From the sequence record PQ561395: a DNA stretch of 24,556 nucleotides; one strand, written 5' to 3'. Source of the stretch: Escherichia phage Ec1-ASingh. Positions 6,031 through 24,556 of the stretch are shown here, piece by piece; the first letter of the stretch is position 1; the number at the start of each line of letters is the position of its first letter. A program made the position numbers and the translations under genes. The notes under the pieces were generated by a model. That model did no database searches and had not been told where the DNA came from. It worked only from the letters and a program-made list of their open reading frames with translations.

Positions 6031-6059
6031 TTGCACACCCCAACATAATAGGATACTAT
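6031..6059 (+). promoter_or_regulatory. sigma70-like promoter (TTGCAC-17nt-TACTAT), copy A of a repeated 33-bp element
   Basis: TTGCACACCCCAACATAATAGGATACTATTCAC at 6031-6063, 30/33 identical to 15786-15818; followed by AACAGGAG RBS and ATG at 6101. Confidence 0.5.
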
Positions 6060-6100
6060 TCACTTACACCAACAATGTTAACTCAAACAGGAGCTACCCC

Positions 6101-6292
6101 ATGACAGGTATTACTATGTTCTTCTTAATCATTATCGTTTTAGTTTATTTTATCCCATTTCTCGTGGCGCATATGCGCAACCATAAAGCTAAATTAGCGA
6201 TATTCATGGCTAATCTGTTTCTCGGTTGGGTTCTGCTGCCGTGGGTATTTATTTTAATATGGGCGTGCAACTCGAATGTCAAAGAGAAGTGA
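6101..6292 (+). CDS. superinfection-immunity-like small membrane protein
   Basis: 63 aa, two hydrophobic helices; motif FIPFLVAHMRNHKAKLAIFMANLFLGWVLLPWVFILIW matches the P.I.A..R.H.N...I..N.FLGW..IGW pattern of the Imm_superinfect family as I recall it (PF14373); RBS CAGGAG. Confidence 0.55.
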   Translation: MTGITMFFLIIIVLVYFIPFLVAHMRNHKAKLAIFMANLFLGWVLLPWVFILIWACNSNVKEK

Positions 6293-6331
6293 GCTAGTAT
6301 AGGACAAATCCTAAACACGAGGAAGTAAAGC

Positions 6332-7462
6332 ATGGCTCATAAGAAAATAACCGACGAACAGTTACGGGAAGAATTGAACGCCGGAACAAAAATTATTGAT
6401 ATCGCACGTAAGTACGGAATCTCAGACCGCGTTATCCGTATCCGTAAAGCGAAGCTGGCTAAGAAAGGTGTAGGCCACGGTCGCGACGTTAGTCACCTTG
6501 TGCCTGACGGCTACAAGATTAAAGGTACGTCGTCTCTGGTGGACGAGTTCGGCAACACTAAACTGCAATGGGTTAAGACCGACACTGACGCAGAACGTCA
6601 GGTCGAGTTGATGAAAGCTGTAATCGAGGGCATGAAGTCAGAGATTACGCCGGTTGCGCCTGTTAAAGCCGTTCGCGCCAAACGTGACGATAAACTACTT
6701 AATCTTTACACTGTATCTGATTTCCATCTCGGTATGCTGGCCTGGGCCGACGAGAGCGGCGACGACTGGGATATGAAGATTGCGGAAGACCTGTTCTCTC
6801 GCTGGTTCGACGTGGCATTTCAGAAAGCGCCGGACGCGGGAACAGGTGTTATTAACCTGCTGGGCGACCTTGCGCACTTCGATAGTCTGGATGCCGTTAC
6901 ACCTGCAAGTGGTCACGTTCTTGACGCCGACACCCGTTATCAGAAACTTGTCCGCTACATGATTCGTATGGTTCGCCGTGTTGTTGATATGGCGCTGGTT
7001 AAGCATAAAAATGTTCGCTTGCTTATCGTGCAAGGGAACCACGACGAAAGCGGAATGATTTGGTTAGCTGAGATGTTCAGTACGCTGTACGACAACGAGC
7101 CTCGTGTGTTCGTCGATACGTCGCCGGATGTTTACAAGATGGTGCAACACGGTAAAACGACACTGTTCTTCCACCACGGGCATAAAGCACGATTCGACGC
7201 TATCGAACCGGTTATGATTGCTAAGTTCCGCAAAGCGTTCGGCGAGAGTGTTTACAGCTACGCCCACGTGGGCCACCTGCACCATCAGAAGATTGTAGAA
7301 AGCCGTAACATGATTGTTGAGCAACACCGCACCTTAGCGGCTAAAGACGCCTACGCCTCCCGCGGCGGATGGATGTCAGGCCGTAGTGCAAATGTAATTA
7401 CTTATAGCGCCGAATATGGTGAGGTCGCACGTTTAACTATTTCACCGGAGATGCTGGGATGA
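6332..7462 (+). CDS. HTH domain + calcineurin-like metallophosphoesterase
   Basis: 376 aa. N-terminal HTH-like segment (IIDIARKYGISDRVIRIRKAKL); then phosphoesterase motifs in order: SDFHLG, GDLAHFD, QGNHDE, FFHHGH, GHLHH. RBS GAGGAAG. Confidence 0.7.
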   Translation: MAHKKITDEQLREELNAGTKIIDIARKYGISDRVIRIRKAKLAKKGVGHGRDVSHLVPDGYKIKGTSSLVDEFGNTKLQWVKTDTDAERQVELMKAVIEGMKSEITPVAPVKAVRAKRDDKLLNLYTVSDFHLGMLAWADESGDDWDMKIAEDLFSRWFDVAFQKAPDAGTGVINLLGDLAHFDSLDAVTPASGHVLDADTRYQKLVRYMIRMVRRVVDMALVKHKNVRLLIVQGNHDESGMIWLAEMFSTLYDNEPRVFVDTSPDVYKMVQHGKTTLFFHHGHKARFDAIEPVMIAKFRKAFGESVYSYAHVGHLHHQKIVESRNMIVEQHRTLAAKDAYASRGGWMSGRSANVITYSAEYGEVARLTISPEMLG

Positions 7463-7659
7463 AAGACATGTATGAATGCACCGATGTGAGTCCGTACGCG
7501 GAGAAAAATGGATTCGAAGTAGGTGCTGTATATGAAGGGGTCACCCTAGAGAATGGCGACGTAAGAATGTATTCGCCTAAATATCGCAGCTTCTTTGAAA
7601 TAGGCAACATTAACGAATCAGGCATAGCCCGATTTAAGAGAGTTAACAGTGACAAATAA
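7459..7659 (+). CDS. hypothetical protein
   Basis: 66 aa; ATG overlaps upstream stop (ATGA), GGAG upstream; same operon. Confidence 0.45.
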   Translation: MKDMYECTDVSPYAEKNGFEVGAVYEGVTLENGDVRMYSPKYRSFFEIGNINESGIARFKRVNSDK

Positions 7660-7879
7660 ATACAACCGTACAATGACAAACACTCACGGCAGCACTATGA
7701 CTGTAGACGTTTATGATGTGCTTCGTGCTTTCGACATCCGCGACCCGGCGCTACAGCACGCATTGAAGAAACTGCTGTGCATGGGCTTGCGTGGCTACAA
7801 GGACACTGGAACAGACTTAGCGGAAGCAATTGAAAGTCTGGAGAAGTTACGAGAGTACAGGAGTAACATTGATGAGTAA
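7649..7879 (+). CDS. hypothetical small protein (weak DUF3310-like pattern, unverified)
   Basis: 76 aa from GTG 7649 (AAGAGAG SD upstream); alternative ATGs at 7673/7696. Motif DVYDVLRAF...ALKKLLCMGLRGYKD...DLAEAIESL. Confidence 0.4.
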   Translation: MTNKYNRTMTNTHGSTMTVDVYDVLRAFDIRDPALQHALKKLLCMGLRGYKDTGTDLAEAIESLEKLREYRSNIDE

Positions 7880-7883
7880 AACT

Positions 7884-7910
7884 AAGGCCCCGAAAGGGGC
7901 CTTAGTTTTA
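7884..7910. terminator. bidirectional rho-independent terminator
   Basis: AAGGCCCC-GAAA-GGGGCCTT hairpin flanked by A-run upstream and AGTTTTA downstream; lies between convergent genes ending at 7879 (+) and 7908 (-). Confidence 0.6.
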
Positions 7911-8540
7911 TCGTTGCGACTTAATTACAGAAACGACTCTTGGATATATCCTCCCGTCTATGGAATCCATAAGCGGCTTAAGTTCTTCTGCTATTTCCAA
8001 TTTCCGCAACGTTCTGGCCTTGATGGCTTCGTCCAAGTCAATAAAATCGCCTAAGTTTTCTCGTACCCCGGTTATGGGGTTGTTAACACGGCATCGTATC
8101 TTGCCGTTTGTTTTTCTATAAGTAAGGCCTATTGGCAGATCGCCCCTAACCGCTGCGCTGTCGGTTAGGAAGTTGTTTAAAACCCTTGGGACAAAGATGC
8201 ATGTCTCCGGTGAGTATTCTTTAGCATCTGTAAGTAAATCCTTGTCTACATGCCAACCATCTACGTAATTATCTTTATACCATTTAAAGTAGTTGGAGAA
8301 ATATAGCCAGTCTTCGCACACTACCACACCTGCGTATGTTGGGTGCTTGGCGGCCCCGTGGTAGCACCTGGATATCATCGCATACCAAATATCATATACT
8401 GGGTGGTTAACAGACTTTTTGCCGTTGAAAATACTAGTGGTAAAATCAGCGTCGTTGATACCGACACCGCAGATTGTTTTACGGCATGATACCGCCCGTT
8501 TTGATGCGGGTATCTTTTCAAATTCTTCATACAGAAACAT
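7908..8540 (-). CDS. hypothetical protein (conserved W-x2-M-x2-RC / aromatic-rich motif; nuclease- or DNA-binding-like, family not identified)
   Basis: 210 aa ORF; motif YDIWYAMISRCYHGAAKHPTYAGVVVCEDWLYFSNYFKW; located between major tail protein and the plus-strand cassette. Confidence 0.5.
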   Translation of the reverse strand: MFLYEEFEKIPASKRAVSCRKTICGVGINDADFTTSIFNGKKSVNHPVYDIWYAMISRCYHGAAKHPTYAGVVVCEDWLYFSNYFKWYKDNYVDGWHVDKDLLTDAKEYSPETCIFVPRVLNNFLTDSAAVRGDLPIGLTYRKTNGKIRCRVNNPITGVRENLGDFIDLDEAIKARTLRKLEIAEELKPLMDSIDGRIYPRVVSVIKSQR

Positions 8541-13084: not shown

Positions 13085-13117
13085 TTAGTAAATGAAAAGA
13101 GGGACCGAAGTCCCTCT
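13085..13117 (-). terminator. rho-independent terminator downstream of major capsid gene
   Basis: AGAGGGAC-CGAA-GTCCCTCT hairpin (about 13098-13117) followed on the minus strand by TTTTCATTT; lies between capsid stop (13134) and next start (13074). Confidence 0.55.
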
Positions 13118-13133
13118 CGATTATAGCTTAACC

Positions 13134-14183
13134 TTAAGCCCCGACACCAGTTACCAGGAAGGCAATCGGTACGTGCTTGCGGTCAACCACACGGTTCCAG
13201 TTGGAGGCGTTCGCCAGGTCCTGCCAGGAAGCAGAGCGGGCTACTGTCTCAGTACCATTGCCAGTAATCACCGCGCTGGTGAAGCTGTAACCAAACGGGT
13301 GAAGCAACCAGGTCTTACGGGTCCACAGGGTTTCAACGCCGCCACCGTTACCACGAGACGCTTCGCGCTCGTATTCCAGCGGGTTAGACGGATCGCCTTC
13401 ACCATAACCGATAGCGCCGTTGCCGAAGATGATGGAGATGAACTTACGGTTAGAGCCGGTGCCGACTACGGTCATGCTGTCGTCAACAATCACGCGGTAG
13501 CCCTGGTAGGTGGCGAACATGGTGTTGTTGTCGGCGTCACGGATGAAGTCAATAAGCTGCTGCTTACCGGCCTGCGCATAAACGAAGCTGTGCATCGCGA
13601 TAGCACCCAGCACTTCACCGCCGTTGCCCATCAGCGCATCGCCCATAGTCTGGGTAGCGTCGATGAACGCACCTGCATCGAAGCCCAGAGTAGAGGACAC
13701 GTCGATTACCATGTCGTTCTGCTCGTGGTACGCGTCGGTAGCGGCTACGTTGTCGTTGTACAAACCGAGCGCGGTAGCGATCAGACGGCGTTGCGCCTGA
13801 CGCTGCCAGAAGTTATCCAGACGGGCTGCTACGGATTTAAGCGGGTCCTGGCGGGTAAGTTCAACGGTCAGATCCGCCTGACCAAAACCTTCGTTCAGGT
13901 AAGCTACGCGAACGTTCATCTCACCAGTCTGTACGTTGCGCGGGGTAGCGACGTCCTGATATACATCGTTCGAGTAGTTCGGCTCGATAGAGGTATCAAT
14001 AGCTTTCCAGTACGGCAGAACAGCTTTGTTGGATGGGCCGTTTGCGATAGCAGCGGCGTACGGAGTCGGGGTAAGGATACCGGACTGGAAGAACGCGGTT
14101 TTCTCTACCGGGTCCTCTGTCATGTAAGACAGAATGACCGATTCTTTACCAGTTACGATATCGCCGATAGTAGTAATTGCCAT
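13134..14183 (-). CDS. major capsid protein
   Basis: 349 aa; strong GAGGA SD; immediately downstream of scaffold gene and followed by a terminator; composition typical of coat proteins. Confidence 0.65.
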   Translation of the reverse strand: MAITTIGDIVTGKESVILSYMTEDPVEKTAFFQSGILTPTPYAAAIANGPSNKAVLPYWKAIDTSIEPNYSNDVYQDVATPRNVQTGEMNVRVAYLNEGFGQADLTVELTRQDPLKSVAARLDNFWQRQAQRRLIATALGLYNDNVAATDAYHEQNDMVIDVSSTLGFDAGAFIDATQTMGDALMGNGGEVLGAIAMHSFVYAQAGKQQLIDFIRDADNNTMFATYQGYRVIVDDSMTVVGTGSNRKFISIIFGNGAIGYGEGDPSNPLEYEREASRGNGGGVETLWTRKTWLLHPFGYSFTSAVITGNGTETVARSASWQDLANASNWNRVVDRKHVPIAFLVTGVGA

Positions 14184-14887
14184 TATTTTTTCCTCAGGGC
14201 TTTAAGTTGCCGTTCAAATTCGGCAGGGTTCGATTCGTACAAAGCGATACGCTCTGCTTCACTCATGTCTTTAAACGCTGGTGCGGCCCCGCCGCCTTTG
14301 CTACCGGAAGCCCCGCCGCCGGAAGCTGCATTTGCTTTAATCAAATGCGAAAACGCTTTGTGTTCGCGCAGGTATTTGCGGAACTGTTCCGGGTCAGTCG
14401 TGATTACGTTACCGTCTGCGCCGACAAACTTAGTAACCACGTCATCGCCTTCGAACTCAGTCTTAACGAACGGAGCAAGAATGTCTACTGCTTCCGGGGT
14501 AATAAAGTCACCTGCGAAAGAGCCTAACACCGCTTTACGTTCGCTGCCGAGGATGCGCTCAGCCATTTTGGTTATGCGACCATCTTTCTCGGCTAACACC
14601 GGGTCATACTGGCTACGAATCGTCTTTTCGAACTCATCCATCTTACCAGCGGCTTTTAATGCCTCCTGGTGTGCGCGCTGCCGTTCTTCTTCGGCCTCTT
14701 TTGCTTTACGGGCGGCTTCTTTCTTCTCCGCCAGCAATGCTTCCTGATTGGCCTTAAGCCCGGCGACTTCTTTCTCAATCAGCGCCTGAACTTCTTCAGC
14801 GGTGAACATTTTCGGCGCGTCACCGCCGCCAGATTTATCTTCTGCTCCAGCTTCTTCCTGGAACGGATAACGTAAAAAACGATTCAT
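14183..14887 (-). CDS. scaffolding protein
   Basis: Highly charged coiled-coil (EALLAEKKEAARKAKEAEEERQRAHQEALK); likely start is ATG 14887 (MNRFL...), since the track start 14941 is a TTG; directly upstream of major capsid gene. Confidence 0.6.
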   Translation of the reverse strand: MNRFLRYPFQEEAGAEDKSGGGDAPKMFTAEEVQALIEKEVAGLKANQEALLAEKKEAARKAKEAEEERQRAHQEALKAAGKMDEFEKTIRSQYDPVLAEKDGRITKMAERILGSERKAVLGSFAGDFITPEAVDILAPFVKTEFEGDDVVTKFVGADGNVITTDPEQFRKYLREHKAFSHLIKANAASGGGASGSKGGGAAPAFKDMSEAERIALYESNPAEFERQLKALRKK

Positions 14888-15465: not shown

Positions 15466-15785
15466 GTTTCTCCTTTCTTGATAAGTAAAGCCCCGCCTTA
15501 AAGCGGGGCGCTAGTCCTTATCATTTAAACATAGAAACGGCGTAATCTCAGTAAACCAGTTACTTTTTACACAAGCAATAGAGTATGACCCTTCCGAACG
15601 CGTCAGCGGAACTACACTCAAGTGCTAAAGCACGCGTTGCGTTCCCTGCCGCGCCGCGGTCGCTTGTTCATACTTCACAAGCTCAGGTGGAGCTTATCAT
15701 ATTTTTAGTGAAAAGTCAACTATTCGAATAGTTTATTCCAACATTTACAATTGAGCGGAATAACTGGAATAGGTAAATAAATAGT

Positions 15786-15814
15786 TTGCGCACCCCAACA
15801 TAATAGGGTACTAT
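15786..15814 (+). promoter_or_regulatory. sigma70-like promoter (TTGCGC-17nt-TACTAT), copy B of the repeated 33-bp element
   Basis: TTGCGCACCCCAACATAATAGGGTACTATTCAG at 15786-15818; followed by AACAGGAG RBS and ATG 15842. Confidence 0.5.
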
Positions 15815-15841
15815 TCAGTTAACTTAAACAGGAGATGAGAA

Positions 15842-16363
15842 ATGATTACTACAGTAATTACTTTCCCTGCGTATGTAGGGGCGAAAATATGCAGGGCTAA
15901 AAATGATGTTCGCTACTATTTGAACGCTTTTTACATAGACCCTGAGGGATTGATAGTGTCTACGGACGGTCATAGATTGTTCTGCGACAATGTGAAGACC
16001 AACGTTGAGAAAGGGACTCTCATAGACATCAAAGGGAGAGAGCCTTCTAAATTTAACTACGCGGAGGTAAACCACGACAACGGCAGTGTATCTTTCTATG
16101 ACGATAATCGTGCGCTTATATGTACACTTCCGGTAGATGTTGTAGAAGGAAACTTTCCTGACTGGAGACGCGTGGCGCGCATTACTCCTGGTACCGTCGA
16201 TAGCATAGGGTTCTCTCTGCGCTATTTAGCAGACGCGCACAAGATTTCTAAGGCGTATAAAAATGAAATTGCTCGTTTCGATTTCCAGGACCAAACAAAC
16301 GGATGCAAAATATCATTTTCAAACACAGCATTTATGGTGTTAATGCCTGCGCGAGTTAAATAA
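15842..16363 (+). CDS. truncated beta sliding-clamp (DnaN) homolog: domain II plus C-terminal half of domain III
   Basis: 173 aa. Motifs matching E. coli DnaN (from memory): NDVRYYLN (DnaN 150-156 DVRYYLN), STDGHRLFC (ATDGHRLAVC 171-180), GNFPDWRRV (GRFPDYRRV 240-247), FSLRYLADA (FNVSYVLDV), C-terminal MVLMPARV (VVMPMRL 360-366). No domain I equivalent. Confidence 0.8.
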   Translation: MITTVITFPAYVGAKICRAKNDVRYYLNAFYIDPEGLIVSTDGHRLFCDNVKTNVEKGTLIDIKGREPSKFNYAEVNHDNGSVSFYDDNRALICTLPVDVVEGNFPDWRRVARITPGTVDSIGFSLRYLADAHKISKAYKNEIARFDFQDQTNGCKISFSNTAFMVLMPARVK

Positions 16364-16366
16364 ACT

Positions 16367-16390
16367 AAGGCCCCATAACGGGGCCTTTTA
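16367..16390. terminator. rho-independent terminator (shared by convergent genes)
   Basis: AAGGCCCC-ATAAC-GGGGCCTT hairpin then TTTATCATT; 3 nt after stop of 15842-16363 and abutting stop of minus gene at 16391. Confidence 0.55.
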
Positions 16391-16852
16391 TCATTCTGGC
16401 TTAGTGACCTTCGCCGCTTTACTGACGACCTCTACACCATCGTCATCGGTAACTTTAACGAAGTATTCACCAACTGCATTAACCGTCAGAGACAAAGCCT
16501 CTTCCGGGGCGTTGACTACTTCCTTGCCGTCTTTGTACCAGGTCAGCACATACGGCGCTTTACCCGCTTTAACTTCGACAGTGATGGTTGCGCTGCCGTC
16601 TGCCAGTTCAGCGTCCTGCGGTTGCACTGAGAAATACACGTCGCCAGCGTCCGCCAGATACGGAATCTCATAAAGCATACCCGCCGCGGGCAGCGCGATA
16701 CCGGTCTTGTCTGCAAACGGCATCTCGTCTACAGGTGTACCGAGTACACTTTCGTCTTCAATAAACACCACGTTCTCGCCGGAGCCAGACACGCGGGCGT
16801 ACTGGACCACACGACGCGACGGCACATCAGTTACTTTGAAAAAGCCCATCAT
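16391..16852 (-). CDS. Ig-like domain-containing protein (possible head decoration/accessory)
   Basis: 153 aa; start overlaps Mu F-like stop; C-terminal TITVEVKAGKAPYVLTWYKDGKEVV...GEYFVKVTDDDG is Ig-like. Confidence 0.5.
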   Translation of the reverse strand: MMGFFKVTDVPSRRVVQYARVSGSGENVVFIEDESVLGTPVDEMPFADKTGIALPAAGMLYEIPYLADAGDVYFSVQPQDAELADGSATITVEVKAGKAPYVLTWYKDGKEVVNAPEEALSLTVNAVGEYFVKVTDDDGVEVVSKAAKVTKPE

Positions 16853-18822
16853 TAATCCCCTTTCAGATAATCAGCAACACGTTTATCGAGTTCCGCCATC
16901 TGCTTAAGCGTGAGCGGATTCCCGAAACCATCTACAGATATTACGCGAAACTCCTCTGGTGATATACCGCTGTTGCGGAAAATCTTACCGCGGGTCGGCC
17001 CGAGTGCTTCATCGACGAACCACGCCGGTTGTTGTTTAAGGAACTCGTAATAGGTGGTGTCCGCGCTTACCTGAGTACCACCGTCTGCACCCTTAGCCGC
17101 ACGTTTTGCACCTTTATCGAGGAAGTCGAACTCGGAACTGATTACCGGAGCCGTGGTACTTCGGCACCCAAAATGTGCTGGCGGCATCGGCCCTTTACCG
17201 ATTTCCCACGTCATTCCGTCTCTGGCCCTGCAATTCTTGACTATCGCACTACCTGCTGTATAATATCCTTGACTACTAGAGAGGGTATAAACATGGCACG
17301 TTCTAAACTCGACGCTTATGCGGATGATATTTGTTCTTTGTACCGAGATGGCACTCCCGCCAGCATCATAGCCAAGAATTACGGCGTCACTACCACCACG
17401 GTAACAACATTTCTCAAGAAGCTCGGACTCATGCATGATCGACCCCGGGGTTGGGTTTCTAACGACACCATTTTGAATCAAAAAAGGGCTATAGAATTGT
17501 TCGAGTCCGGCGTCCCGCCTATTGAGTGCATAAGAAGGACCCAAGTAAGCAAAACAGTTTTCTATTCTATGGTCAAAACACTTGGCCTCGCTAAGCGCGG
17601 GCACACTCACAGGACATTCACCCCGGAGGAGAAAATCGCCAGAGCTATCGTCCGACAGCAAAGCGGCGCTATGAATAAGACTGAAACCCTCGCTTTTGAA
17701 TTGTTTAATTCCGCTGGCGTGGACGTAGTTCCGCAGTTTGCAATCGGCCCGTACAATGTCGATTTTGCCATTGAGTCCCACTCCATCGCCATAGAAATCT
17801 GTTGCCGCGGGACTCGTGCTTACCATTTTCCTGATGGGGAAATCAGCGAGCGTATTAAAAATATAATCCGCTCTGGCTGGCATGTTTATGTTCTTCACTG
17901 TTTCGAGCACAGTCACTTTGTCAACAGTGGTATACAAGACATGCTTAGTTGGGTCGAGTTCATCAAGCGGAGTCCATCCGTATTGCGTGAGTACAGGGTG
18001 TTTCGGGGTGCCACTGAACTTCTCGCCGTTGGAAAGTTCGATGGTAAGGATTTTTCCTGAATAGAGTCCGCGCATTACCGCGTCCATCCCCGCGATGGGC
18101 GCTAATTCTGTTTCAGCCGTGAAACACGTTGTACTGGTACGGCTGTCCAGCGTTGACACCCATTCGTACTTCTCGATGATGTCGTCGTTCTGGCGGTACG
18201 TCTCGTTACGTGCTTCGTTGGATACGTGCGACAGCGCGGTGCGTATTACGGTAGCTGCGTTACGTTCAGAGATATCAGCCAGGCCACCAGCACCAACAAC
18301 ATTCTTAACAATCTGCCGTGTTGTCTGGCCTTGTACAAAGCCCATCTTAACGCCTGTTACAAGGCGCGCGACTTCTGTTTCCCCCCAGCCCGACATCAGC
18401 TTAGTGAAGTCAACTGGCTTGTCGCTTAATGATAATGGCTGAAACTCGGCGGCGGACCACACCTGTTCAGCGGTCGGGGTAACAAATTCCGCATTAACGT
18501 TAGCCGTGAGTGTCTTCACATTCCACTCAGCCTCATACGCTGCAAGCTCCTTAAGGTCTTCCGTCAGCTTTGTCCGCCAGTCACCAGTAAGCCCTGTCAA
18601 TGCTTCTTCAAGGTCGAGTAACAGTTTATTCAGTCGCGCAGTGCTCCGCCCGTCGTCGCCGAATAACAGCACCTGCCGTTTGATTTCGTCCCGCATCTCC
18701 TTAATGAACGGCGCGAGGTCTTTCACCTCACCGGATGCAGTGCGTTGCAGCCATATCTGGTGGCTGATTAGAGATGTAAGTAAGCTCATAGATAAACCCT
18801 GTGGCGCTAAAGTTAATAGCAT
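16852..18822 (-). CDS. head morphogenesis protein (Mu F / SPP1 gp7-like) interrupted by an in-frame intein
   Basis: 656 aa. Exteins carry YEWVSTLDSRTSTT | CRARDGMTWEIGKGPMPPAHFGCRSTT, i.e. the family LD.RT...CR..DG ... PP.H..CR pattern is restored only after removing residues 233-530. Confidence 0.8.
   Translation of the reverse strand: MLLTLAPQGLSMSLLTSLISHQIWLQRTASGEVKDLAPFIKEMRDEIKRQVLLFGDDGRSTARLNKLLLDLEEALTGLTGDWRTKLTEDLKELAAYEAEWNVKTLTANVNAEFVTPTAEQVWSAAEFQPLSLSDKPVDFTKLMSGWGETEVARLVTGVKMGFVQGQTTRQIVKNVVGAGGLADISERNAATVIRTALSHVSNEARNETYRQNDDIIEKYEWVSTLDSRTSTTCFTAETELAPIAGMDAVMRGLYSGKILTIELSNGEKFSGTPKHPVLTQYGWTPLDELDPTKHVLYTTVDKVTVLETVKNINMPARADYIFNTLADFPIRKMVSTSPAATDFYGDGVGLNGKIDIVRADCKLRNYVHASGIKQFKSEGFSLIHSAALLSDDSSGDFLLRGECPVSVPALSEAKCFDHRIENCFAYLGPSYALNRRDAGLEQFYSPFLIQNGVVRNPTPGSIMHESELLEKCCYRGGSDAVILGYDAGGSAISVQRTNIIRISVEFRTCHVYTLSSSQGYYTAGSAIVKNCRARDGMTWEIGKGPMPPAHFGCRSTTAPVISSEFDFLDKGAKRAAKGADGGTQVSADTTYYEFLKQQPAWFVDEALGPTRGKIFRNSGISPEEFRVISVDGFGNPLTLKQMAELDKRVADYLKGD
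17237..17264 (+). promoter_or_regulatory. near-consensus sigma70 promoter (TTGACT-16nt-TATAAT) for the nested plus-strand gene
   Basis: Read directly; lies ~29 nt upstream of ATG 17293, with GAGAGGG SD at 17279-17285. Sits inside the intein block-G coding sequence on the opposite strand. Confidence 0.5.
17293..18060 (+). CDS. HTH-HTH + Vsr/DUF559-like (PD-(D/E)XK) endonuclease, putative homing endonuclease, nested antisense within the intein
   Basis: 255 aa from ATG 17293 (track ORF opens at 17029). Two HTH-like segments (GTPASIIAKNYGVTTTTVTTFLKKLG; GVPPIECIRRTQVSKTVFYSMVKTLG); C-terminal VVPQFAIGPYNVDFAIESHSIAIE...ERIKNIIRSGWHVYVL matches the DUF559/Vsr-like pattern. Own promoter and SD. 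Confidence 0.6.
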   Translation: MARSKLDAYADDICSLYRDGTPASIIAKNYGVTTTTVTTFLKKLGLMHDRPRGWVSNDTILNQKRAIELFESGVPPIECIRRTQVSKTVFYSMVKTLGLAKRGHTHRTFTPEEKIARAIVRQQSGAMNKTETLAFELFNSAGVDVVPQFAIGPYNVDFAIESHSIAIEICCRGTRAYHFPDGEISERIKNIIRSGWHVYVLHCFEHSHFVNSGIQDMLSWVEFIKRSPSVLREYRVFRGATELLAVGKFDGKDFS

Positions 18823-18846
18823 ACTATAAGAAAACCCCTTTCGGGG
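18823..18846 (-). terminator. terminator-like hairpin abutting the head-morphogenesis start codon
   Basis: Minus-strand CCCC-GAAA-GGGG followed by TTTTCTTATAGT and then ATG at 18822; lies between portal stop (18859) and the Mu F-like start. Confidence 0.4.
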
Positions 18847-23571: not shown

Positions 23572-23754
23572 CTACCCCACTATCTCATCACCGAGCCACG
23601 CCGTTTCTCGTATATCATCAACCACACATGCGGCGTGCTCGCGGCTAATTGCAAAAATGTAGAAGCTAAACTTCTTCCCGTCGGCGTCGATGTGGTTAAC
23701 TGAGTAGGGTTTCCACAGGACGCCATCAATTACTACTGGCTTAGGCGACTCCAT
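23572..23754 (-). CDS. hypothetical protein
   Basis: Track ORF 23572-23838 overlaps the upstream gene by ~100 nt; the internal ATG at 23754 (MESPKPVVIDGVLWKPY...) with GGTGA upstream reduces overlap to 14 nt. Start uncertain. Confidence 0.3.
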   Translation of the reverse strand: MESPKPVVIDGVLWKPYSVNHIDADGKKFSFYIFAISREHAACVVDDIRETAWLGDEIVG

Positions 23755-24312: not shown

Positions 24313-24458
24313 TTCTTCTCTCCTGCATAAGCTGCTTTCAGTGTCTGCATCGCGGCGAACCAGAACGCGTCCGCTGGAATACTGCTGCTCAGGTTACTAA
24401 CGGCGATACGCGCCATCAGTTGTGCGTCTTTGAATGCTTCGATATCTGTGATTTTCAT
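24309..24458 (-). CDS. hypothetical small protein (49 aa)
   Basis: Hand-translated MKITDIEAFKDAQLMARIAVSNLSSSIPADAFWFAAMQTLKAAYAGEKK; GGAG ~9 nt upstream of ATG 24458; stop overlaps next start. Confidence 0.3.
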   Translation of the reverse strand: MKITDIEAFKDAQLMARIAVSNLSSSIPADAFWFAAMQTLKAAYAGEKK

Positions 24459-24556
24459 TTCTCTCTACTCCGTTCTCGTTGTCGATGGAGTAAATATAAT
24501 AAGGTCCAAGGTAATAGTCAACTAGTCATTACAGAAAATAGATAAAAAAAAATCCC

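Follow-up and report, generated by a model that had tools for sequence, protein, structure and literature searches.

A 32-nucleotide (nt) element that occurs twice in a 24,556-nt stretch of DNA from Escherichia phage Ec1-ASingh (sequence record PQ561395; the whole stretch is hereafter called the window) is shared by the Kagunavirus and Jerseyvirus phages, in which it probably acts as a lineage-wide promoter for accessory and small-gene units, read by the host sigma-70 RNA polymerase, placed at the head of portable cassettes and overlapped by a short dyad that would serve as an operator. The window belongs to a Kagunavirus (Guernseyvirinae), with ~90% identity to Escherichia phage fEg-Eco06 across 82% of its length. 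Its minus strand carries, in this order, small genes and the terminase, portal, head-morphogenesis, Hoc-like, spanin, scaffold and capsid genes, followed by the neck and tail genes, the tail tube, the tail-assembly chaperones and the tape measure. This virion-gene block is interrupted by two plus-strand gene sets, antisense to the structural genes as the original prediction had described them, and each set begins downstream of one copy of the element. The core of this motif has already been published as a predicted promoter, partly with a mistaken attribution; what is added here comprises the full -35/-10 reading, a dyad common to two promoter architectures, matching terminators and the exchange of cargo from slot to slot.

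The element reads TTGC(A/G)CACCCCAACATAATAGG(A/G)TACTATTCA and lies on the plus strand at 6031-6062 (copy 1) and 15786-15817 (copy 2). The two copies are identical at 30 of 33 positions, the mismatches falling at positions 5, 23 and 33, and they are 94% identical over the 32 nt of the element itself. The 32-mer TTGCRCACCCCAACATAATAGGRTACTATTCA matched the window at exactly these two sites, no further copy being found there at up to three mismatches, nor any in 100 dinucleotide shuffles. In copy 1, a -35 hexamer TTGCAC (6031-6036) is followed by a 17-nt spacer and a -10 hexamer TACTAT (6054-6059), and in copy 2 TTGCGC (15786-15791) is followed at the same distance by TACTAT (15809-15814); the upstream flanks are AT-rich, as in TAAATAAATAGT and AATAAAATTTAC. 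A second shared block, TTAACTYAAACAGGAG, also had only two sites in the window (6078-6093 and 15819-15834, with 0.02 expected), and in each case an ATG stands 7 nt past it, at 6101 and 15842. The repeat, the hexamers with their spacing and the TTAACT-type block with its ATG had thus been read correctly from the letters, except that one difference was glossed over: in copy 2 the block directly adjoins the element, whereas in copy 1 the 15-nt stretch CTTACACCAACAATG (6063-6077) stands between them. These two sites and their counterparts in other genomes are referred to below as class A.

A 66-nt query around copy 2 matched 177 phage records (Escherichia, Salmonella and a few others), typically at 2-4 places per record. 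The original prediction had pointed to related phages as a source of further copies, and 25 full copies were collected from eight genomes, with 4-5 copies per Kagunavirus and 2-3 per Jerseyvirus. They followed the pattern TTGC..A......A.A.AATAG..TACTATT, in which part of the spacer varies, as in the second small-gene operon, where ACTGAGAT takes the place of ACCCCAAC; the distance between -35 and -10 was identical in all 25. In these genomes, the element stands in front of two small-gene operons of unknown function next to the replication module and at the head of up to three antisense slots in the structural module, the third of which, used in some phages, lies between the head-morphogenesis and portal genes. 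In this way, the proposal that unrelated gene sets share regulatory DNA was borne out on a larger scale than the two sites of the window, the same element heading 4-5 transcription units per Kagunavirus genome. An 18-nt core of the element was found in 82 stretches of IMG/VR contigs, nearly all of them genomes of 41-45 kb. A search of 185,579 bacterial and archaeal genomes with the same core returned seven scattered single hits in unrelated taxa, none of them enterobacterial, which is no enrichment given the ~30 chance hits estimated under a uniform-composition model. The lysogenic expression that had been suggested was rejected, given the lack of enterobacterial hits among these seven and the papers on the relatives, which report no lysogeny genes.

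The orientation of the element was evaluated in 138 copies pooled over all loci, 110 of which were distinct and had enough flanking sequence, by asking for a Shine-Dalgarno sequence and an open reading frame (ORF) of at least 30 amino acids (aa) starting no more than 75 nt away. Such a gene start lay downstream of 108 of the 110 distinct copies and on the opposite side of 13 of the 110, and the start codon was mostly placed 25-42 nt from the -10. An orientation bias combined with a short leader of fixed length is predicted by a promoter and not by a symmetric binding site, and this comparison supports the promoter interpretation.

The slots were assigned from the flanking conserved genes. Cassette 1 of the window occupies the slot between the tail-assembly-chaperone and tail-tube genes (slot 1) and cassette 2 the slot between the spanin and Hoc-like genes (slot 2). 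Across the lineage, slot 1 yielded 34 copies of the element with four different first genes, slot 2 at least 25 copies with at least 12 unrelated first genes, and the slot between the head-morphogenesis and portal genes (slot 3) 10 copies with at least nine different cargos. Five cargos occur in both slots 2 and 3, namely a 173-aa clamp-like protein, a 242/250-aa methyltransferase and proteins of 94, 61 and 57 aa. When slot 2 was compared among seven phages drawn from two genera, the flank on the spanin side, the promoter, the leader (mostly GTTAACTTAAACAGGAG) and a terminator of the form TAAGGCCCC-N4-5-GGGGCCTT were kept, and the sequence from the Shine-Dalgarno to the terminator was unrelated and ranged from ~200 to 800 bp. 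Cassette 2 of the window aligned with a clamp-like cassette that phage fBC-Eco01 has in slot 3; the aligned part began at about the -35 and ended with the final T of the terminator, the flanks on either side being unrelated.

A further shared feature, which had escaped the original prediction, was revealed by a repeat finder: both cassettes are closed by similar terminators, ACTAAGGCCCC-loop-GGGGCCTT, at 7880-7909 and 16367-16389, so that promoter-like, ribosome-binding and terminator DNA are all common to cassettes 1 and 2. Slot 3 is empty in the window, where the portal/head-morphogenesis junction is reduced to 36 bp with a degenerate dyad AATAG-CATA-CTATA (18815-18828) and an adjacent hairpin; in fBC-Eco01 and others the same junction holds a promoter and cargo, which indicates that the two are present or absent as a unit. 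The reading as modular, moron-like units, which had been one of the original proposals, is supported by the homology between cassette 2 and the slot 3 cassette of fBC-Eco01, which runs from about the -35 past the T-run of the terminator. The notion of two separate insertions private to this phage has to be given up in favour of conserved Kagunavirus/Jerseyvirus slots whose promoter, leader and terminator are resident and enclose an exchangeable cargo. As repeats found around the genome, the promoter/leader and the terminator offer portable homology for such replacement, and the coincidence of the breakpoints with these repeats suggests that recombination would be the shuffling mechanism.

The age of the slots could be approached through Cornellvirus, in which no repeated promoter was found and only the terminators are shared. 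Phage FSL SP-031 of this genus carries AAGGCCCC...GGGGCCTT-type terminators (24452-24469, 26310-26327 and 32851-32868) and antisense cargo in the same slots, for instance a PAPS reductase, without the class-A promoter or the dyad. Since Cornellvirus has both slots and terminators in their absence, the slots are older than the class-A promoter family.

Within each copy, the -10 hexamer is covered by a dyad, AATAG-GATA-CTATT in copy 1 (6047-6060) and AATAG-GGTA-CTATT in copy 2 (15802-15815). The form AATAG-N4-CTATT was present in all class-A copies, whose sets had been selected with the dyad as a criterion, and independent evidence was provided by its genome-wide enrichment: at up to one mismatch, 8-14 sites were counted per Kagunavirus or Jerseyvirus genome, against ~1 expected from shuffles, and one site only in Cornellvirus FSL SP-031. 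The dyad also belongs to a second promoter class (class B) on the replication-gene strand of the same genomes, TTGACA-N4-AATAG-N4-CTATTATAGT, which gives TTGACA, 17 nt and TATAGT. The dyad lies over the -10 in class A and is shifted ~6 bp upstream, into the spacer, in class B; at late-strand promoters, partial copies adjoin the -35. The occurrence of one dyad in different registers over core promoter elements points to the operator of a dimeric DNA-binding protein, for which a repressor is likelier than an activator. Most likely, the dyad is an operator through which a DNA-binding protein encoded by the phage would co-regulate all the dyad-bearing units, and the features expected of a repressor operator, that is, dyad symmetry, several copies and overlap with core promoter elements, were all observed. 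A role as hairpin or terminator was ruled out by weak folding (-2.3 and -4.0 kcal/mol, z -1.05 and 0.06), no better than that of shuffles.

Cro/CI-type repressors control operator-bearing early promoters, and the present system resembles theirs in that one phage has many promoters whose core elements share an overlapping short dyad, together with a Cro/C1-type helix-turn-helix (HTH) gene. The candidate binders in the relatives are a 71-aa Cro/C1-type HTH_3 protein, whose gene is found in a divergent intergenic region carrying two dyad sites, and a 56-aa HTH_17 protein. The system differs in that the HTH genes lie outside the window and in that Cornellvirus retains a 43%-identical HTH protein with a similar recognition helix but without the dyad. 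Because of this counterexample, the case for the Cro-like protein as the binder is not clear, and co-variation of the dyad with the Cro-like HTH protein lent it no clear support.

Regarding the polymerase, the -35 hexamers TTGCAC and TTGCGC match the sigma-70 consensus at 3/6 positions and TACTAT at 4/6, including T-12, A-11 and T-7, at a spacing of 17 nt, and the late-strand promoter-like sites of the window (24521-24493 and 15719-15691, minus strand) are sigma-70-like as well. No RNA polymerase gene is annotated in the eight relatives examined, and no RNA polymerase Pfam domain was detected in the ten largest proteins of fEg-Eco06, of which the three without any hit belong to the tail module. 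Considering the sigma-70 geometry, the near-consensus sister promoters and the failure to find a phage RNA polymerase, the host enzyme is the parsimonious reader. The element thus reads as a sigma-70-type promoter, spread lineage-wide in virulent phages of E. coli and Salmonella, at whose sites transcription would be initiated.

The promoter and module readings survived every comparative test run on these genomes, and the points that weigh against them are the following. The hexamers agree with the consensus at 7/12 positions, which is weak, and both sites were absent from the list of a simple sigma-70 scanner because at least 4/6 was required per hexamer and TTGCAC has 3/6; unaided use by sigma-70 is consequently not assured, and dependence on a phage factor is possible. 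The conserved spacer positions C8, A13 and A15 and the TCA that follows the -10 are not explained by sigma-70 alone. Part of the invariance of the dyad among the collected copies was built in, as its presence was a condition of the searches. A literature search found no mapping of transcription start sites in Guernseyvirinae. The only RNA sequencing (RNA-seq) study of a Kagunavirus, on phage K1B4, took samples from 5 to 120 min with a latent period of 30 min, thereby covering several infection cycles, and is too coarse to time the class-A units. As for the modules, a call between a promoter that moved with its cargo and cargo that was swapped between resident promoters is impossible because the copies are nearly identical, and a test for within-genome homogenisation was uninformative, with 1.9 differences per 32 nt for copies in the same slot, 2.15 for a different slot and genome and 2.15 within the same genome.

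Some of these points would also fit an activator-dependent promoter of the middle type, in which the box ACCCCAAY and the dyad would be bound by a phage activator or by a factor that appropriates sigma, the near-consensus replication promoters firing first and the cassettes being switched on later. This explanation would account for the 7/12 match and the omission by the scanner, for spacer conservation beyond the needs of sigma-70 and for the presence of a second class, TTGACA-17-TATAGT, in the same genomes. It also agrees with the K1B4 RNA-seq paper, in which the gene of the Imm protein is grouped with the DNA polymerase and methylase genes, and not with the structural ones, and stands outside the four earliest genes. 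It is nevertheless considered unlikely, since the ~6-bp shift of the dyad register between the two promoter classes fits occlusion by a repressor better than the fixed geometry of an activator, and since the TTG of the -35 and the optimal 17-nt spacing have been retained, which would be needless if the -35 were bypassed; the K1B4 timing, as stated, is too coarse to speak for it.

A lower probability still was assigned to a pure protein-binding or recombination site, either an operator or the target of a homing or site-specific enzyme, in which the likeness to -35 and -10 would be incidental. The strong over-representation of the dyad, also outside the TTGCRC context, and the HNH endonuclease genes found near some cassettes (for instance, at 7908-8540 in the window) are in keeping with it. 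A symmetric site alone, however, would not show the 108:13 orientation bias, nor does such a site explain a conserved TTG placed exactly 17 nt from TACTAT; moreover, the element is present with or without a nearby HNH gene, and the antisense cassettes would be left without any other evident promoter.

The published attribution is a different one. 'Phage promoters' predicted with PHIRE were listed for fBC-Eco01 (Arch Virol 2023, PMC9825357) and VB_EcoS-Golestan (Sci Rep 2020, PMC7203180), and ATAATAGG-TACTATTCA, once reverse-complemented, gives the fBC-Eco01 consensus, tgAATAGTa-ccTATTat-T. For each genome seven sites were given, among them one before the Imm cassette and one before the gene in the spanin/Hoc slot. 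These lists stop at the 20-nt core and lack the -35, combine both promoter architectures and consist of predictions without experiments; neither paper notes the dyad, the shared terminators or the shuffling of cargo. The fBC-Eco01 paper credits the sites to a 'phage-encoded RNA polymerase', which its genome seemingly does not encode. That a 20-nt core is repeated in both phages is all that PHIRE contributes to this explanation, as the program detects repeated motifs and says nothing on the polymerase; the eight relatives have no such gene annotated, the sigma-70 geometry of the element and its near-consensus sister promoters speak for the host enzyme, and the explanation was rejected as highly improbable for want of an RNA polymerase domain in the ten largest fEg-Eco06 proteins. 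Equally improbable is a recent duplication that reflects shared ancestry without function: it would suit the 94% identity of the window copies over 32 nt and the 16-nt block shared by their leaders, but the same slots are used in two genera whose structural genes are only ~60-90% identical in DNA, the flanks of different copies are unrelated, and copies in different slots are as alike as orthologous ones (2.15 against 1.9 differences in 32 nt), which indicates constraint or exchange instead of drift.

With the class-A element taken as a host sigma-70 promoter, the following course of events is envisaged. The host sigma-70 RNA polymerase would read TTGCRC, 17 nt and TACTAT, and the transcript would start with a leader of 25-42 nt containing a strong Shine-Dalgarno sequence. 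Each slot would consist of a divergent promoter pair and a terminator, the class-A promoter firing into the cargo and away from the late genes, and the hairpin at the far end halting the cargo transcript short of a collision with the late genes. The hairpin at 16367-16389 probably also halts opposing late-strand transcripts, because it was scored as a terminator on both strands, and the late-strand site at 15719-15691, behind the class-A promoter, would restart late transcription. The cargo would be replaced between resident repeats, and whole cassettes turn up in other slots of the relatives. Early timing is the most likely, given that the small-gene operons next to the replication module share this promoter, and early expression of the cassettes is accordingly regarded as plausible from their promoter.

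The leader of cassette 1 (6063-6100, plus strand) consists of the slot-1-specific CTTACACCAACAATG followed by the ribosome-binding block TTAACTCAAACAGGAG at 6078-6093, 7 nt ahead of the ATG; it looks composite, with a start specific to slot 1 joined to a ribosome-binding block typical of the other slots. The cargo (6101-7879, plus strand) comprises four ORFs, and the same genes are annotated in phage fEg-Eco19. They encode an Imm-type superinfection immunity protein (6101-6292), a metallophosphoesterase or 'DNA repair exonuclease' (6332-7462) and products of 66 aa (7459-7659) and 76 aa (7649-7879). The last of these matched just the C-terminal third of several PHROG profiles of ~210-250 positions, one of them labelled as an ATPase, and may be a truncated remnant from cargo exchange. 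The cassette ends in an intrinsic terminator (7880-7909, plus strand), AACTAAGGCCCC-GAAA-GGGGCCTTAGTT followed by TT, with a folding energy of -26.9 kcal/mol (z -8.2). On the opposite strand of copy 1 (6045-6081, minus strand), overlapping promoter-like readings are aimed at the tail-assembly-chaperone gene, namely TTAACA-17-TAGTAT, reported by the scanner, and TTGGTG-16-TATTAT, whose -10 is the left arm of the dyad; they could be a bidirectional promoter or chance.

In cassette 2, the leader (15818-15841, plus strand) contains the ribosome-binding block TTAACTTAAACAGGAG at 15819-15834, and the cargo (15842-16363, plus strand) is the 173-aa protein with weak sliding-clamp-like matches. The names given to this protein in databases conflict, 'RusA-like Holliday junction resolvase' standing against 'DNA polymerase III beta / sliding clamp'; Pfam returned only a sub-threshold match to DNA_pol3_beta_2 (E 0.006), and PHROGs matches carried both labels. 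The terminator (16367-16389), AAGGCCCC-ATAAC-GGGGCCTT followed by TT, was predicted on both strands with -15.4 kcal/mol (z -3.9) and sits between the convergent cargo and Hoc-like genes. Upstream of the class-A element lies its divergent promoter-like partner on the late strand (15691-15733, minus strand), with TTGACT (15719-15714), 17 nt and TAAGCT (15696-15691); a perfect 16-bp palindrome, AACTATTCGAATAGTT (15733-15718, minus strand), built from the half-site of the dyad, abuts its -35. Within 15466-15733 (minus strand), this site is followed by a leader of ~200 nt with a 36-aa ORF and by a terminator-like hairpin (15509-15490) directly before the ribosome-binding site of the spanin gene, a layout that resembles a promoter-leader-terminator unit possibly requiring antitermination.

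In lambdoid phages, a moron is a unit of promoter, gene and terminator lying between adjacent genes of a conserved operon. The cassettes agree with this description, since each cargo is flanked by its own promoter (at 6031 and 15786) and its own hairpin/T-run terminator (7880-7909 and 16367-16389) and sits, in varying composition, between two genes that stand side by side in relatives; as autonomous units the cassettes vary among relatives, some of which have them while others lack them or carry different ones, and in the fEg-Eco19 record the clamp-like gene is marked as a 'possible moron gene product'. The classic morons were described in temperate phages, in which their expression often comes from the prophage, whereas the Kagunavirus and Jerseyvirus relatives are virulent. 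A further difference is that one family-specific promoter, leader and terminator are common to all the units, in fixed slots antisense to the operon. Independent expression of the cassettes is here implied only by this antisense orientation.

The second comparison is with the PeSL (promoter-early stem-loop) cassettes found in T4-like phages (Arbiol et al. 2010, PMC2839356; Comeau et al. 2014, PMC4122927), whose repeated early promoters and terminators supply homology for the exchange of modules. In both systems, repeated sigma-70-like promoters with AT-rich upstream sequence precede hypervariable genes of mostly unknown function, terminators insulate the neighbouring late genes, and the boundaries of insertions, deletions and replacements between close relatives fall at the repeats. 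In PeSL, a G+C-rich stem-loop terminator is fused to the promoter, whereas here the terminator is separate and stands at the far end of the cassette, and because this composite of promoter and stem-loop is absent the element was not filed as PeSL. In addition, the copies number 4-5 as against ~50, the carriers are 45-kb siphoviruses, and recombination with mini-circles is a feature of PeSL, while here a coincidence of breakpoints was read from sequence. A broader scenario can be put forward only tentatively, in which PeSL-like shuffling would operate in a small virulent siphovirus, with fixed antisense docking slots, recombination between repeats of ~50 and ~25 bp, and slots, small-gene operons and replication promoters placed under one regulator through the dyad. 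If this were true, the accessory genes exchanged in the docking slots would include those for superinfection immunity, methyltransferases and the clamp-like protein.

Other features of the window were also recorded. Between the terminator of cassette 1 and the tail-tube gene, a 210-aa ORF (7908-8540, minus strand) matched the HNH endonuclease PHROG 953 (E 5e-71) with no Pfam hit; at this locus fEg-Eco19 has a 'hypothetical protein' and fEg-Eco06 carries PNK and dNMP-kinase genes instead, and the ORF is probably a homing-endonuclease insertion. The Mu F-like head-morphogenesis gene (16852-18822, minus strand) encodes 656 aa, against ~347 aa in phages fBC-Eco01, K1H and skrot; its homologue in fEg-Eco06 carries an intein annotation and gave a weak Intein_splicing Pfam match. 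Antisense to the capsid and scaffold genes runs a 551-aa ORF (13092-14747, plus strand) whose counterpart has 385 aa in fEg-Eco06 and consists of two pieces, of 174 and 198 aa, in Salmonella phage skrot; the ORF is most likely an artefact of codon bias and not a gene.

At the end of the window (24493-24528), the near-consensus promoter-like site TTGACT-17-TATATT (24521-24493, minus strand) bears a partial dyad, ACTAG-TTGA-CTATT; it stands just downstream of the lysis-gene terminator, heads the small genes before the terminase and is kept in all the Kagunavirus and Jerseyvirus genomes examined. The window also encodes a homologue (~23575-23754, minus strand), at 92% identity, of the fEg-Eco06 protein annotated as 'RNA polymerase inhibitor, similar to 2LMC_A (T7 Gp2)'. 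Such an inhibitor, if real, would bear on promoter shut-off. A phmmer search of this product against the PDB returned nothing relevant; the AF2 model (pLDDT 79.8) has three strands and a helix, and Foldseek found no PDB match at E <= 0.001. The T7 Gp2-like label was left unsupported by these checks.

The architecture described here is tidy and largely expected for phages, and no new kind of mechanism is revealed by it. Its interest comes from the widespread isolation of Kagunavirus and Jerseyvirus phages for use against E. coli and Salmonella in therapy and biocontrol. For annotators, slots bounded by a promoter and a terminator tell where host-range, superinfection-exclusion and anti-defence cargo may be found, and for engineers the same slots would be natural insertion sites in which expression signals are already supplied. 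The earlier claim in print that a phage RNA polymerase reads these sites is corrected, and one short dyad is nominated as a handle on the timing of transcription in the phages of both genera.

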